From a bacterium (GTDB lineage: Bacteria; Patescibacteriota; Microgenomatia; Woykebacterales; RBG-16-39-9b), in assembly GCA_030704665.1 (NCBI GenBank), contig JAUYID010000009.1, forward strand, positions 256,832 to 320,831: DNA of 64,000 nt. The letters are read 5' to 3'. Under the pieces are notes generated by a model that did no database searches, was not told where the DNA came from, and saw only the letters and a list, made by a program, of their open reading frames with translations. Position 1 is the first letter of the stretch. Each line of letters opens with the position of its first letter. The translations under genes and the position numbers were made by a program. Positions 4,885 through 53,480 of the stretch are shown piece by piece.

Positions 4885-4919
4885 CCAACAAAACTCCACG
4901 ATCGTACAATTTGTTCTAC
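4885..4919 (-). repeat. copy 1 of 33-bp ACGATCGTG intergenic motif (inverted orientation)
   Basis: CCAACAAAACTCCACGATCGTACAATTTGTTCTAC. Its reverse complement is identical over 30 nt to the copy at 8981-9011. Confidence 0.6.
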
Positions 4920-4965
4920 TTAAAAAAACCTTTTAATTTTTCAAAAAGGGCTGAGAAATGAGAAA

Positions 4966-4997
4966 GGGCCCCCGCGAAAATGTCTGTGCGGGGGCCC
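4966..4997 (-). terminator. GC-rich hairpin, likely intrinsic terminator for CDS 5029-5529 (possibly bidirectional)
   Basis: GGGCCCCCGCG / CGCGGGGGCCC 10-bp stem followed by U-rich tract on the minus strand. Confidence 0.5.
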
Positions 4998-5028
4998 TTT
5001 GCTCTTTCCATGTGTTCTCGGCCGTCGT

Positions 5029-5529
5029 TCAGCAGGTCTTGCTTCGCAAGTTGCCGGTGGCGACGATCTGTCTGTCCGCGTTCTCGATGACGGCGGAGCA
5101 GGGGCCGGCGAGAGAGTTGTCCCAGGTACCACTGCCGTACTTGCTCTGAACCACCTTGTGGTGGGAGAGCGTGAAGTGAGTGGATCCGAAACTGGCGCAG
5201 GGACACTCACCGTTCTTGCCGGAGGCGAGACCGACGTAGCCTTCCGTGAGGCCGCTGACGACCAAGACACGGAATTCGTAGCTCACGGTGGTCCCGGTCG
5301 AGAGAGCGGTCACCACCCCAGAGGGCACTTCGCGGCTGGTCACCCGGACCAGAGCGAAGACGTCGTCGTCGCCCCTGACCTGGACGATCTGCGTCGAGGT
5401 GCGCTGGGACGGCGGGCCGCCGGCCGCCGAGGTGGTCCCGGTCGAGACGAAGGTCGCGAAGATGCCGAGAAAGACCAAAACACCGAGAATGGAAAAGAGC
5501 TTCAAGTGTGCACCTCCTAAGTGCTGCAT
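5029..5529 (-). CDS. secreted cysteine-containing hypothetical protein (GC-rich islet)
   Basis: ORF 5029-5592. Likely start at internal Met (MQHLGGAHLKLFSILGVLVFLGIFATFVSTG signal-like N-terminus). Very GC-rich by eye. Sits next to the tRNA cluster. Confidence 0.5.
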   Translation of the reverse strand: MQHLGGAHLKLFSILGVLVFLGIFATFVSTGTTSAAGGPPSQRTSTQIVQVRGDDDVFALVRVTSREVPSGVVTALSTGTTVSYEFRVLVVSGLTEGYVGLASGKNGECPCASFGSTHFTLSHHKVVQSKYGSGTWDNSLAGPCSAVIENADRQIVATGNLRSKTC

Positions 5530-5606
5530 GAATCCCTCTACGGGAGCTTGATTGATACTAAAAATTATAGCATAAATAAGACCTAAAGTCAATTACTATA
5601 AGACAC

Positions 5607-5725
5607 TAGTAGCTGATGTTTCCTACCGGAAACCAGCTACTGCGTGTCTTGAGCTCAAGCATAGTCTGACGACTAAGTTTTTCTGAAACGCAGAGCGCTT
5701 TAGCGATCTATTGGCTTGATCTTGG
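5607..5725 (+). repeat. left copy of ~118-bp inverted repeat pair
   Basis: Reverse complement aligns to 7727-7843 with near identity over ~75 nt (CCAAGATCAAGC.AATAGATCGCTAAAGCGCTCTGCGTTTC...GTCAGACTATGCTTGAGC). Distal ~35 nt forms a 15-bp hairpin (TAGTAGCTGATGTTTCC/GGAAACCAGCTACTA). Confidence 0.7.
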
Positions 5726-6029
5726 TATCTTTGGAATGATTAAATAGGCTTGCTGCGAATAAAGAGTTGGGAGAAAACAAAAAAGGCCAAGCCAAACGCT
5801 TAGTCCTTTTTGTAGCCCTCGAAACCAAATGATTTCTGCCCTAGCAAGTTAGATTACTGAGTCAATCCTCCGCATCTTTAGGTGGGAACTCTGGCTCCTA
5901 GCCCAAGGGATAGGCGCACTCCGAGTCTGCCCGAATGTGGAAATTTAACAAAGAAGAATTGCTTACAGCCACTCTCCTTGTAGGGCAACTTTTTTATAGC
6001 ACAATTTGTGAAAAATTCAAAGAGACAAG

Positions 6030-50855: not shown

Positions 50856-51199
50856 ATTGTTTTGTTATTTTAAGCCTATTTAGAATTCTTTCTGTCACTT
50901 TTTAGAAAAGTGACCAAAACTTCCGCCAGGCTGCGTGCGCTAGCAAGATTTAAGTCGCTCAAGCAAAGTTGTTAAACTCGCCTTCGGCTCAAACAAAACA
51001 ACTTGTGCTAGGTCGCTTGGTTAAATCTTGCTTAAACGCGTACTCGCAATGGCGGTATAAGAAAATTTTAACTTCGCATTCACAATTCTTAATTCTGGAC
51101 TCACTTGTTTCCTTGACCCGAAAGGGTACAATTTTAGATGAGACATGGCAGTGTCTTCCGACTTACTTCGTTTTTGGCAGGTTTGCAGTATCACGAAGA

Positions 51200-52860
51200 A
51201 GCCCTAGTTAAAAAAGTAGGTCGGTTGAAGGGGTAGAAGGGTAGGGCAGATTTCCAGAGCAGCTGGTTTCTTGTTCTTTCCTAGGGGAGAACACGTCTGT
51301 TCGGTGTACACTCAATCAGCTGTTCTGTCGCATTGGTTTTCCCAAGGTTCAACTATCGGGTTCGAACGGGCAACCAAGGCAAAATGCGGCGAAGTGGGGG
51401 TTTTAGTGCTCAATTAGCCTTTGCTTCGCCGTTCCCCAAGGCAAACAATTGACCGCTTGCTTTTTCATTTTTCTAGTAGCATTATCTCAATAACGGTTTG
51501 TGGAACGGCCTCGAGTTCCGATTGGAAAAAGACTGATGTCTCTGTCCAAGTCCACGATATCAAGAGGCAAGGAGGTGCTGTCTAGCCAAGTTCTCGGCAT
51601 AGGCGTGTCCTGACAGGACGTGACTGTACTTCAGGACAATTCCCCCACCAGGGAATGGGCGGAACTGAATGACGTTTTGGGAGAGGCGTTGTTTGGTGCC
51701 CCAGAAGATGGTGACTGGAGAGGGCGGCTTTTCTCGAAAGTTACCATTGACTGTTCCTTACCTGACCTGATTTTTGCTTACTTTGTGGGCAAGTCTCAGA
51801 TCAGTTTCAATACGGTGAATCGGAGGGAGAGATGGATCTTATCTTGGGACTTTGAGCAAGGATGCTCCCGCGCGTAAGTTCCGAGCCCTCCATTCAGGCG
51901 AGAGCGAGTGTGTCCACGGATCCCCGAAATTCTTGACCACACCGCTCTCGCCCTCGCTCCTTTTTCCCCACTTGAATTTAAACAAAAAAGGTAGCATATT
52001 TAATTTGAAGGTCTGGTTGGGATCCGCATAACCGCACCAAACCTTTACCGTGTCCACACCTTGTGGCTAGCACGGGTGGATGCTCCTGACGGCCAGGAGC
52101 GTAGGTCTCAAGGAAGACAGGAGGCAGGGAAGAGTACGGCATTCGCGGAGGCTTGAGAGTACCAGTCAGGGTTTGATGGGATGCGGACCTTTCCCTGACG
52201 CTTTCCAGTTGGTGGAGTTTGGTTGCGAAGAAGAAGCACCAAAGCCATGGTGAGACTCCACCCAACTGCCAATTTCCTGATTCGATTTCGCTTGTCCGAA
52301 AAGCAGATCGGTCAGTGCGCAATAATTTCGGTTCCTCAAGGACGAGGAGTTTGAGAGCAGACGAAAGAAGGGCCAACCCTGAAGTCCCACCCCGCCACCT
52401 AGGACGTTTCAGGCCCTTCCTGCGGTTTCAAGCTGGCAGAAGCTGGCCCCCGCATATCCCCCCTCAAGGCGTCTGGTCTCAACCCCAAACCTTCAGGACA
52501 GGGGAGCGTGGTGTGACGATTTTGCGAATCGTTGCTTACGCCCCACGCTCCCCCTCGTCTAGTCTAAAAGCTTGCAATTTCCTTTCACAAAAGTTAAAAT
52601 TCAAACTGACAAGGGCATCTACGCCGCATCTCGCCGAAAGGGCGGGACCCGACGTTGCTTAACTAAGGTCGTCTTGGAATAGGACGAGCCGACAAAGAGC
52701 AGGGAAACCAAAGCAGGCCAGCCTCGACTAGCTCAGCTAGTCGAACTGAATTACCACAAAATAGATGCCTTTTTACGTGCCCGCCAATTTTGGCGAGGTA
52801 CGGTCAAAATCCCTGTGTGATTAATTTAAAAGTACCCTTTGAAAGGTTTTTAACGTGGCG
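51200..52860. other. ~1.6 kb GC-rich segment with no credible ORF (candidate structured RNA or decayed foreign DNA)
   Basis: All frames have only short stop-interrupted ORFs with junk-like translations. Contains long imperfect stems (e.g. GGCGAGAGCGAGTGTG...CACACCGCTCTCGCC around 51895-51955). Confidence 0.3.
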
Positions 52861-52865
52861 ATTTG

Positions 52866-52940
52866 TGTCATCCTGAATTTAATTCAGGATCTTCTGAAAA
52901 CGCCAGGTTAATTGGGTTCTGAAACAAGTTCAGAATGACA
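52866..52940. repeat. MITE-like palindromic element copy
   Basis: TGTCATCCTGAATTTAATTCAGGATC ... GTTCTGAAACAAGTTCAGAATGACA. Overlaps the first ATG of ORF 52935. Confidence 0.55.
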
Positions 52941-52955
52941 GAAGGAGCAATAAAA

Positions 52956-53414
52956 ATGGCTATGTTTAGTTTTTTCGGAAAAGGGTTTCGTGATCTCGAA
53001 ACCAAAATAGCAGAACTCATTACCAGCTTCGCCGGAAGTATGGCTTTTGTTTACATACATATTATTTGGTTTGGAGCCTGGATAATTTTCGCCAAGCAAA
53101 TTGGTGATACCTTTCCTTTTGGTTTGCTGACAATGATCGTCTCCCTTGAGGCAATTTTCCTTTCTACCTTGATCATGGTCAAACAAAACCGTCAGGCTGA
53201 GATTGATGCCCAAAGAGCTGAAGAAGAGGATGAAGAAAGAGAAGACATTGAAGAAGATATTGAGGATATTCAAGAGGATTTCGATGAGCTACAAAAAGAT
53301 CTTAGTGAAGTGCGTCGTCTCATTGAAAAAATTGAATCTCGAACTACTAGTTACGACCCTGTTTCCAAACCAGTGCCTTCTAGCATTCGAAACAAGAAAA
53401 AAGATTCCGCCTAA
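52956..53414 (+). CDS. DUF1003-like membrane protein with acidic coiled-coil tail
   Basis: AAGGAG RBS 8 nt before ATG at 52956. Two TM helices and an NRQ motif, then an E/D-rich tail. Confidence 0.5.
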   Translation: MAMFSFFGKGFRDLETKIAELITSFAGSMAFVYIHIIWFGAWIIFAKQIGDTFPFGLLTMIVSLEAIFLSTLIMVKQNRQAEIDAQRAEEEDEEREDIEEDIEDIQEDFDELQKDLSEVRRLIEKIESRTTSYDPVSKPVPSSIRNKKKDSA

Positions 53415-53446
53415 ACAAACGAGGTTAGTTAAACTTAAATCTTGAG

Positions 53447-53480
53447 TAGTACAAATTGTACGATCGTGAACTTTGTTCTA
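53447..53480 (+). repeat. copy 6 of 33-bp ACGATCGTG motif
   Basis: TAGTACAAATTGTACGATCGTGAACTTTGTTCTA, immediately followed by a MITE-like element. Confidence 0.55.

Follow-up and report, generated by a model that had tools for sequence, protein, structure and literature searches.

A palindromic site on both sides of a gene for a winged-helix and Cas2-like protein in a Woykebacteria-like genome

What kind of element is an imperfect palindrome of about 40 bp that recurs six times in a stretch of bacterial chromosome and stands on both sides of one of its genes? The stretch, hereafter the window, comprises 64,000 nucleotides (nt) of contig JAUYID010000009.1 (assembly GCA_030704665.1, positions 256,832 to 320,831) from a candidate-phyla (Patescibacteria) bacterium near Candidatus Woykebacteria. 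A first, sequence-only reading of this DNA had offered three options for the palindromic motif, a recombination site, a protein-binding site or an element of 3' untranslated regions (3' UTRs), and had described the gene at 12003-12512 as flanked by two copies in the manner of a cassette. On the whole we lean towards the protein-binding site, with the motif as the cognate double-stranded DNA site of a winged-helix and Cas2-like 'mini-PaaX' protein that the flanked gene would encode, the upstream copy acting as an autoregulatory operator and the downstream copy as a second operator. This option is supported by the dyad symmetry of the motif, by a winged helix-turn-helix gene that is bracketed in ten lineages, and by lineage-specific arms that match within a genome.

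The palindrome and the gene between two of its copies

All six places at which the motif had been reported were read directly. The six copies were recovered at or near the coordinates first given, by sequence reading, by a profile and against shuffled sequence, and are listed here together with the gene that two of them bracket.

Copy 1: 4883-4924, minus strand, dispersed
Copy 2: 8971-9013, plus strand, dispersed
Copy 3: 11929-11971, plus strand, upstream member of the bracketing pair
Copy 4: 12503-12545, plus strand, downstream member of the bracketing pair
Copy 5: 24686-24728, minus strand, dispersed, with a mutated centre CAATCG
Copy 6: 53441-53478 in the profile search (53441-53488 as a feature), plus strand, dispersed, nearly symmetric
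Bracketed gene: 12003-12512, plus strand, single copy in the window (tblastn), with a winged-helix and Cas2-like product of 169 amino acids (aa)

An nhmmer profile built from the six copies returned exactly these six sites (E 8e-13 to 3e-10), the next, unrelated match having an E value of about 5, and a degenerate 27-mer with at most three mismatches found five copies where 0.00 were expected from 100 dinucleotide-preserving shuffles. The consensus is TTTAGsTAGnACAAA-ttnn-ACGATCGTG-nAn-TTTTGTTGG. Its dyad is CGATCG and its outer arms are ACAAA and TTTGT, and the profile scores both strands at the same places. The two copies that had been noticed to be identical over 30 nt (ACAAATTGTACGATCGTGGAGTTTTGTTGG) are copies 1 and 2, and their flanks are unrelated. 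Copy 6 has TAGnACAAA in both arms and a right side that mirrors the TTTAGnTAG extension, so that its orientation is ambiguous. A location at 3' ends of genes, often between convergent genes, had been ascribed to the motif in general; it applies to copies 1, 2, 4, 5 and 6 but not to copy 3, and a same-strand gene precedes five of the six copies.

Exact-pattern scans with TAGNACAAATTNNACGATCGTG gave one match in a genome collection and two in a metagenome collection, all of which we attribute to chance because they lie in high-GC DNA or in an unrelated genome and the rest of the motif is missing. No PvuI-type avoidance of CGATCG was seen in the window (16 occurrences per 64 kb versus about 13 expected from base composition). 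Among known sites, the inner TTCAC-GATC-GTGAA resembles the parS halves TTTCAC and GTGAAA with 4 bp inserted, a likeness judged to be coincidental, while CIRCE, LexA (Cheo) and NrdR boxes were ruled out on spacing.

The pair that flanks 12003-12512 was borne out, and the downstream copy, copy 4, supplies the TAG stop codon of the gene; the centre of this copy lies 15 nt past the stop. The centre of copy 3 (CGATCG, 11950-11955) lies 50 nt upstream of the ATG, and the right arm of this copy overlaps a -35-like TTGCAT (11966-11971), followed after an 18-nt spacer by a -10-like TATATT (11990-11995) that ends 7 nt before the ATG.

The sequence-only reading had also called for a search for a DNA-binding protein or a recombinase that recognises the motif. 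As judged from its domains and position, the product of 12003-12512, encoded between copies 3 and 4, is most likely the cognate binding protein. Its main Pfam match is PaaX_M (PF20803; E=1.3e-14, 54.5 bits versus a cut-off of 24), with weak matches to Cas2 (5e-05) and to the PaaX N-terminal domain (9e-05; 23.0 bits, just below the cut-off of 24.8). Cas2 models of PADLOC match it likewise, and a profile of the family run against the PDB retrieved winged helices of MarR, PadR and AspA as well as Escherichia coli PaaX (residues 57-172). The AlphaFold (AF2) model has a mean predicted local distance difference test score of 70, with values of 81-87 in the Cas2-like half, and consists of a winged helix (helices 18-23 and 32-44, beta wing 48-61) followed by a beta-alpha-beta-beta-alpha-beta domain; residues 32-44 form the predicted recognition helix. 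PaaX (8a39) and Rv0674 (3kfw) ranked at the top of the Foldseek matches to this model, with many Cas2 chains next. A PaaX_C domain was not found, the protein stopping after the middle domain at 169 aa, and the equivalog level of TIGR02277 was not reached (38.9 bits versus a cut-off of 264.55).

The protein retains a Cas2-like signature, FDIPE...R..R...WQKSVW, which is missing in E. coli PaaX. In 65 representatives of the family (22-49% identity), D96, R105 and S123 are invariant and F95, I97, E99, R109 and Q121 nearly so. The family amounts to 4004 clusters at 50% identity with E<=1e-10 and includes short and longer PaaX-like forms; no relative was found in the viral contigs searched. No paa genes occur among the approximately 50 open reading frames (ORFs) of the window that were scanned, and the neighbours are def-fmt, Wzy_C and MreBCD. 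A CRISPR-like repeat near a Cas2-like gene was ruled out, with no arrays found by Tandem Repeats Finder or a repeat search and no match to a CRISPR-DR model of Rfam.

Bracketing pairs in related genomes

Relatives were reached through protein homology, and the DNA around nine homologues (35-62% protein identity) was read in Woykebacteria-like and related candidate-phyla genomes, which are labelled here by locus (L005 to L019). A motif search in relatives had been proposed at the outset, and it found a pair of palindromic sites bracketing the homologous gene in all nine, that is in ten of ten lineages with the window included. The centre of the upstream site lies 38-65 nt before the ATG in the ten lineages, over-long gene starts having been corrected in L013 and L015. 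The centre of the downstream site lies 15-19 nt past the stop codon in seven lineages and 25-41 nt past it in the other three, and the distance between paired sites is 534-638 bp. In an unbiased repeat search of the loci of five relatives, the bracketing pairs were among the top local repeats, with lengths of up to 57 nt (L005).

Of the 20 bracketing sites, 17 retain the centre (A)CGATCG(T); it is degenerate in L013 (CGGTCG/CGTTCG) and in one site of L018. The arms differ among lineages as follows.

Window and L009: arms TAGTACAAA
L005 and L008: arms GAACAAA
L014: arms AGTGACA
L015: arms TTGACGTC
L017: arms ATCAACAC and TGTAACAA, perfect 34-nt palindromes
L019: arms TGACAG
L013: arms ATGACAAAA

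Outside the 8-nt centre, the identity between upstream and downstream copies had a mean of 0.60 within a genome versus 0.33 between clades. The recognition helix reads AE(S/A)xR(I/M) in the ACAAA clade and ADSLTH, QNSVYR, DSAINQ or KAAVWV elsewhere. It appears to vary in parallel with the arm sequence, a correlation that is confounded by phylogeny and only suggestive.

The position over a promoter recurs as well. In seven of the lineages read, namely the window and six relatives, the site stands just upstream of a -10-like hexamer that is 6-13 nt away from the ATG (TATAAT in L005, L008, L009, L011 and L017, TATCAT in L014). This layout suggests short-leader or leaderless transcripts.

The gene order M50 protease-L28-def-fmt-X-small ORF-Wzy_C...MreB is shared by the window, L005, L008, L009-12 and L017 (38-62% identity), and L013 and L014 have a second conserved gene context. 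Because gene order is conserved, the bracketed gene is taken to be resident and vertically inherited, and a mobile cassette is ruled out for it. The retention of both sites at the gene over long divergence points to a role in cis for this gene and not to transposon ends. Approximately 150 kb of non-redundant sequence from the relatives' loci, including the orthologous M50-L28-def-fmt and DUF1003-cysS regions, contained no copy beyond the bracketing pairs. A side observation on the conserved neighbourhood is that 9062-10408 (minus strand) encodes peptide deformylase and methionyl-tRNA formyltransferase in a single ORF, a fusion that is kept in all syntenic relatives.

Dispersed copies, GC-rich islets and small repeats

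Copies 1, 2, 5 and 6 are specific to this genome in comparison with the relatives' loci, being missing from the orthologous positions. They must have been copied, since a match over 40 bp cannot arise independently four times. Three features lie directly beside them.

GC-rich islet 1: 4941-5725, minus strand; a conserved 5' region (5566-5725), an ORF without homologues (ORFan) of secreted type and a terminator hairpin; ends at copy 1
GC-rich islet 2: 7717-8968, plus strand; a paralogous 5' region (7717-7880), unrelated ORFan ORFs and a terminator-like hairpin; ends at copy 2
Short repeat resembling a miniature inverted-repeat transposable element (MITE), beside copy 5: 24735-24832, minus strand; ends GTCATCCTGAG / TTCAGAGTGAC

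The two islets are placed in inverted relative orientation around M50-L28. Their 5' repeat (5566-5725 and 7717-7880) is about 165 nt long with 80% identity, rising to 94% in a 47-nt stretch, and carries a TTGACT-17-TATAAT/TATATT promoter with an upstream hairpin, which drives unrelated GC-rich ORFan genes. The islets also have the motif at the 3' end in common, while their cargo ORFs and terminator hairpins are unrelated; paralogy of two islet proteins was ruled out (BLASTP E=0.46), and the islet-2 protein is an ORFan. Both modules are missing in the relatives. The L28 and def-fmt genes are adjacent in L005 and L008, and only a MarR-family gene lies between them in L017.

Read on the minus strand, copy 1 comes after the terminator hairpin of islet 1. 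The promoter of a tRNA cluster (TTGCCG-17-TATAAT at 4858-4830) is found downstream of this copy, with about 27 nt between the copy and the -35 element and about 78 nt between the centre of the copy and the start of the promoter. Copy 2 is directly 3' of the terminator-like hairpin (8921-8968) of islet 2, with the 3' end of def-fmt, a convergent gene, on its other side. Copy 5 comes after a GC-rich ORF of 83 aa (25182-24931, minus strand), a hairpin and the MITE-like repeat, and is situated between convergent genes. The DUF1003 gene ends 25 nt ahead of copy 6, which has a short repeat beside it and cysS about 170 nt further on; this copy was not found in the orthologous DUF1003-cysS spacer of relatives, these spacers not being alignable for fine boundaries.

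The repeat beside copy 5 has the block CTCGAGACTCTTCAC in common with the repeat beside copy 6 (53525-53540). The repeats at these two copies share an exact 16-nt block and a TTCAGAGTGA block at a similar distance from the motif. The abutment on MITE-like elements that had been described for two copies is thereby confirmed in part, in the sense that copies 5 and 6 adjoin short repeats with common blocks. The sharing of neighbouring sequence suggests that the copies spread by duplication of larger modules and not as a precise 40-bp mobile unit.

A segment with a GC content of at least 0.56 lies within about 400 bp on the TAG side of four of the six copies (1, 2, 3 and 5). For copy 3, this side holds 0-3 lineage-specific small genes, which are different in each relative. 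The idea that the motif marks the borders of GC-rich islets consequently stands for these four copies, while 7-8 other GC-rich segments have no copy. The link of the motif to GC-rich insertions is real but partial.

The window as a whole is core chromosome. Its genes include the def-fmt fusion, mreBCD, PBP2, dprA, topA, rpsB-tsf-frr, dnaX-recR, cysS and the tRNA cluster. The nearest homologue with an organism name for the DUF1003 protein came from Woykebacteria (77% identity), and a 13-kb contig of an independent assembly is 100% identical to 9511-22512.

Several further observations were made along the way. Between the strong promoter at 4858-4830 and the gene for tRNA-Thr(GGU) at 4543-4617, the segment 4640-4815 (minus strand) contains three incomplete tRNA-like sequences at intervals of 49-64 nt, each reduced to a 5' half with acceptor 5' strand, D arm and anticodon arm. 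ARAGORN and Rfam do not call them, and they could have been left behind by repeated integrations or form an unusual tRNA leader. In L019 (10505-10600), the downstream bracketing site directly precedes an apparent tRNA gene, identified by reading only; together with copy 1 near the promoter of the tRNA cluster this makes two cases only, which may be coincidence. The 48-nt terminator-like element GAGAAACGAC...GGTCGTTTTTCTTTG is duplicated at 8921-8968, where it abuts copy 2, and at 30159-30206 (81% identity). A separate family of intergenic hairpin repeats, GTCATCCTGA...TCAGGATGAC, occurs at 6734-6758, 24821-24844, 26106-26134, 33321-33358 and 52866-52890, and one of these was read into the annotated 5' end of the L28 ORF. 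The 25-nt sequence AATAGATCGCTAAAGCGCTCTGCG(A/T) at 7729-7753 is identical to L017 13069-13093 in the MreB-MreC spacer and has its reverse complement within the 5679-5725 arm. This sequence forms an imperfect palindrome, AGAnCGCTnnAGCGnTCT, to which another conserved DNA-binding protein may bind; the PaaX-like protein of L017 is only 38% identical. Finally, 27191-28756 encodes an unusual fusion of MtrA-like, thymidylate-synthase-like and pterin-binding DUF4346 domains, adjoining dCTP-deaminase-like genes and a thymidylate kinase gene.

Readings of the site and comparison with known systems

The overall pattern fits a dyad-symmetric double-stranded site bound by a dimer. In E. coli, PaaX recognises TGATTC-N27-GAATCA and is a repressor of its own promoter, Px, from which it keeps RNA polymerase away (PMC9493321). 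We infer binding, repression, looping and a role of the centre as follows. The two winged-helix domains of a protein dimer would sit on the outer inverted arms (nACAAA ... TTTGTn in the window clade), with the Cas2-like dimer core over the invariant CGATCG dyad, an assignment that pairs the conserved part of the protein with the conserved part of the site. Occupancy of the upstream site would cover the -35 element and repress transcription of the gene itself, like PaaX at Px, and the upstream copy does fit an operator for autoregulation of this general type. The second site, at the stop codon, could be an auxiliary operator that forms a loop with the first, about 570 bp away, or else a roadblock between convergent units. 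The four further copies would be recent lineage-specific duplicates that were carried along beside GC-rich ORFan modules and small repeats; their effect may be to bring the protein to new locations, or they may be neutral.

Several features weigh against an operator pair of this kind. An operator just past a stop codon is unusual, and in the window clade it faces a convergent gene and no obvious promoter. A simple regulon would leave copies 1, 2 and 5 unexplained, the last two being located between convergent genes and the first having its centre about 78 nt upstream of the tRNA promoter start. The dispersed copies share spacer positions, which indicates that they were copied, and the model supplies no copying mechanism. 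In some cases the site reaches approximately 45-57 nt (the TTTAGsTAG extension and the 57-nt pair of L005), which is long for one dimer. D96, which corresponds to the catalytic-type Asp of Cas2, is invariant and E99 nearly so, a conservation that a pure repressor would not need. Lastly, mismatches in the arms are more often G:T than A:C (62 versus 29), a weak hint of constraint on a single strand, although the sites are not independent and composition explains part of the excess.

The same excess of G:T mismatches speaks for an element that acts in RNA, such as a 3' UTR hairpin serving as terminator, stabiliser or processing site, and so do the position of five copies behind a same-strand gene and the stable folding of some relatives' sites (-18 to -23 kcal/mol in L017, -14 to -18 kcal/mol in L015). 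We nevertheless hold this to be very improbable. The window copies fold no better than shuffles on either strand (z +1.1 to -1.0), a U-tract is missing, and copies 1, 2 and 5 are each preceded by a separate terminator hairpin. The sequence signature is kept across 24 sites whose hairpin energies vary between -1.7 and -23 kcal/mol; neither strand is preferred, sense folding being the more stable at 15 of these sites, and spacer positions are often non-complementary where the arms and the centre are conserved as sequence. The upstream copy overlaps a promoter, and the genes on its two sides are divergent in L008, in L017 and probably in L009. Rfam, run on the window at gathering and permissive thresholds, gave only four tRNAs and sub-threshold noise and no match for the motif. 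An intrinsic terminator in particular was rejected, as the motif is absent from the terminator-like sites that were found and the folding of the window copies has z values of -1.0 to +1.1. With folding at the level of shuffles, Rfam empty and the upstream copy over a promoter, the 3' UTR option was not borne out. Nor did the recombination option gain much, in which the motif would be an attC- or dif-like site and a recombinase encoded elsewhere in the genome would insert GC-rich ORFan modules beside it; we regard this as quite improbable. It would explain why GC-rich lineage-specific ORFs lie on the TAG side of copies 1, 2, 3 and 5, why 0-3 small genes, differing among relatives, lie upstream of copy 3, the ancestral one, and why islets 1 and 2 combine a common 5' region and 3' motif with unrelated cargo, and the layout of the motif is a palindrome of the 11 + 6 + 11 type. 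The neighbours of the gene are conserved, however, and the bracketed gene itself is not mobile. The search for a cognate recombinase found no integrase, Xer protein or transposase among the ORFs scanned. No islet lies between two copies and there is no tandem cassette array; 7-8 GC-rich segments lack a copy, and GTTRRRY fits only copy 2 of the six. In sites of tyrosine recombinases the arms are expected to be conserved and the centre is free to vary, the reverse of the varying arms and fixed centre seen here.

A different kind of enzymatic reading takes its cue from repetitive extragenic palindromes (REPs) and their REP-associated tyrosine transposases (RAYTs). Here the winged-helix and Cas2-like protein would have the palindrome as the specific target of a nuclease or nickase activity, perhaps with a cut at CGATCG, and would occasionally copy it to new extragenic places. 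Substrates of the protein would stand on both sides of its gene, in the way that REPs flank RAYT genes, and the repeat would be beginning to proliferate in this genome beside newly acquired GC-rich genes. REPs are usually present in more than 100 copies per genome and often form inverted doublets; in the window, six copies and no doublets are seen in 64 kb, and the relatives' loci hold only the bracketing pair. We consider this reading unlikely, though worth keeping in view, and the same goes for its extension to the family as a whole (about 4000 clusters at 50% identity, with genomic context read for ten members), in which the protein, with its Cas2 catalytic-type Asp, would act enzymatically on the CGATCG core. 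What speaks for it is the placement of lineage-specific palindromes on both sides of a vertically inherited, single-copy gene in all ten lineages, the identity of copies 1 and 2 over 30 nt despite unrelated flanks, the invariance of the Cas2-type Asp in 65 family members, and orthologous positions in relatives that lack the dispersed copies. The extra copies sit after genes or between convergent genes, as has been described for REPs (PMC3733652), and a GTAG/CTAG tag stands at one end of the palindrome in the window clade only, GTAG-tagged REPs being on record as well (PMC3733652). The protein, however, is not an HUH/Y1 transposase, no ORF scanned matched Y1_Tnp, and nuclease activity is only hypothetical. 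The hairpins of the window copies are no better than shuffles, and the relatives, with no extra copies in about 150 kb, maintain the bracketing pair without a repeat population. Adjacent sequence shared by copies 5 and 6 (the 16-nt block) and by copies 1 and 2 (the 165-nt 5' region) suggests larger segmental duplication. If true, the enzymatic reading would describe a new domesticated or selfish DNA system that uses the Cas2 fold outside CRISPR.

Returning to the autoregulated operator pair, very few regulators have been characterised in candidate-phyla bacteria, for which there is no genetics, and the pairing of a protein with its DNA site, a palindrome of about 30-50 bp, can here be read from sequence alone. 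The change of the site arms with the protein lineage would offer a testable recognition code with ten natural protein/site pairs. The arrangement raises the questions of why a second site stands at the gene's own stop codon and why the invariant acidic residue of Cas2 is retained. Should the protein cut or copy its site, it would be a Cas2-fold counterpart of REP/RAYT and would be informative about the recruitment of Cas2-like domains among defence, toxin and regulatory roles.

Among known systems, the attC sites of integrons are similar in being imperfect palindromes at the 3' end of small, variable, promoter-proximal gene modules. They differ in that the present locus has no IntI among the ORFs scanned, no attI and no array, in that sequence and not structure is conserved, and in that the bracketed gene is syntenic. 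The REP/RAYT system has in common with the present one a single-copy, vertically inherited gene bracketed by lineage-specific extragenic palindromes and extra copies after or between genes, and a GTAG-like tag precedes the palindrome in the window clade (PMC3733652). In contrast to RAYTs, the protein bracketed here is not of the HUH/Y1 type, the copy number is low (six in 64 kb) with only the two bracketing copies in the relatives, hairpins are weak in the window clade, and the part that is invariant across the mini-PaaX family is the centre rather than a terminal tag.

Proteins of the Lrp/AsnC family oligomerise through their second domain and autoregulate. They resemble the 169-aa protein in their build of a winged helix and a beta-alpha-beta-beta-alpha-beta domain, with weak Foldseek matches to 2ia0, 2dbb, 2efq and 8q90 (E 0.06-0.2), but the second domain here is Cas2/PaaX_M by sequence and Pfam and not RAM, and the sites differ. 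Operators on both sides of a regulator's own gene, combined with looping, are found in lambda CI (OR/OL), TP901-1 CI (OR/OL/OD), deo and gal. These repressors likewise have palindromic sites upstream and downstream of the regulator gene, separated by some hundreds of bp (534-638 bp in the present case), but they belong to families unrelated to the PaaX/Cas2-like protein, and we know of no parallel for a second site placed tightly at the stop codon.

The closest comparison is with PaaX of Escherichia coli and Pseudomonas, which has an N-terminal winged helix and a Cas2-like middle domain (PaaX_M; best structure 8a39) and widely spaced inverted half-sites over its own promoter (PMC9493321). The protein described here differs in its length of 169 aa without PaaX_C, in the lack of paa genes nearby and in keeping the FDIPE...QKSVW signature that is missing in E. 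coli PaaX. Its motif differs in the invariant CGATCG centre, in an arm spacing of about 17-19 nt versus 27 and in the half-site sequence, and a second site always follows the stop codon in the ten lineages read. Searches of the literature on PaaX with Cas2 and on Cas2-like with helix-turn-helix proteins yielded no description of the bracketing arrangement. An autoregulated PaaX-type repressor with its operator would be a kind of system that is already known; what is new is that a second site at the stop codon is obligatory, that arms specific to each lineage surround an invariant CGATCG core, and that the protein has kept a Cas2 signature.

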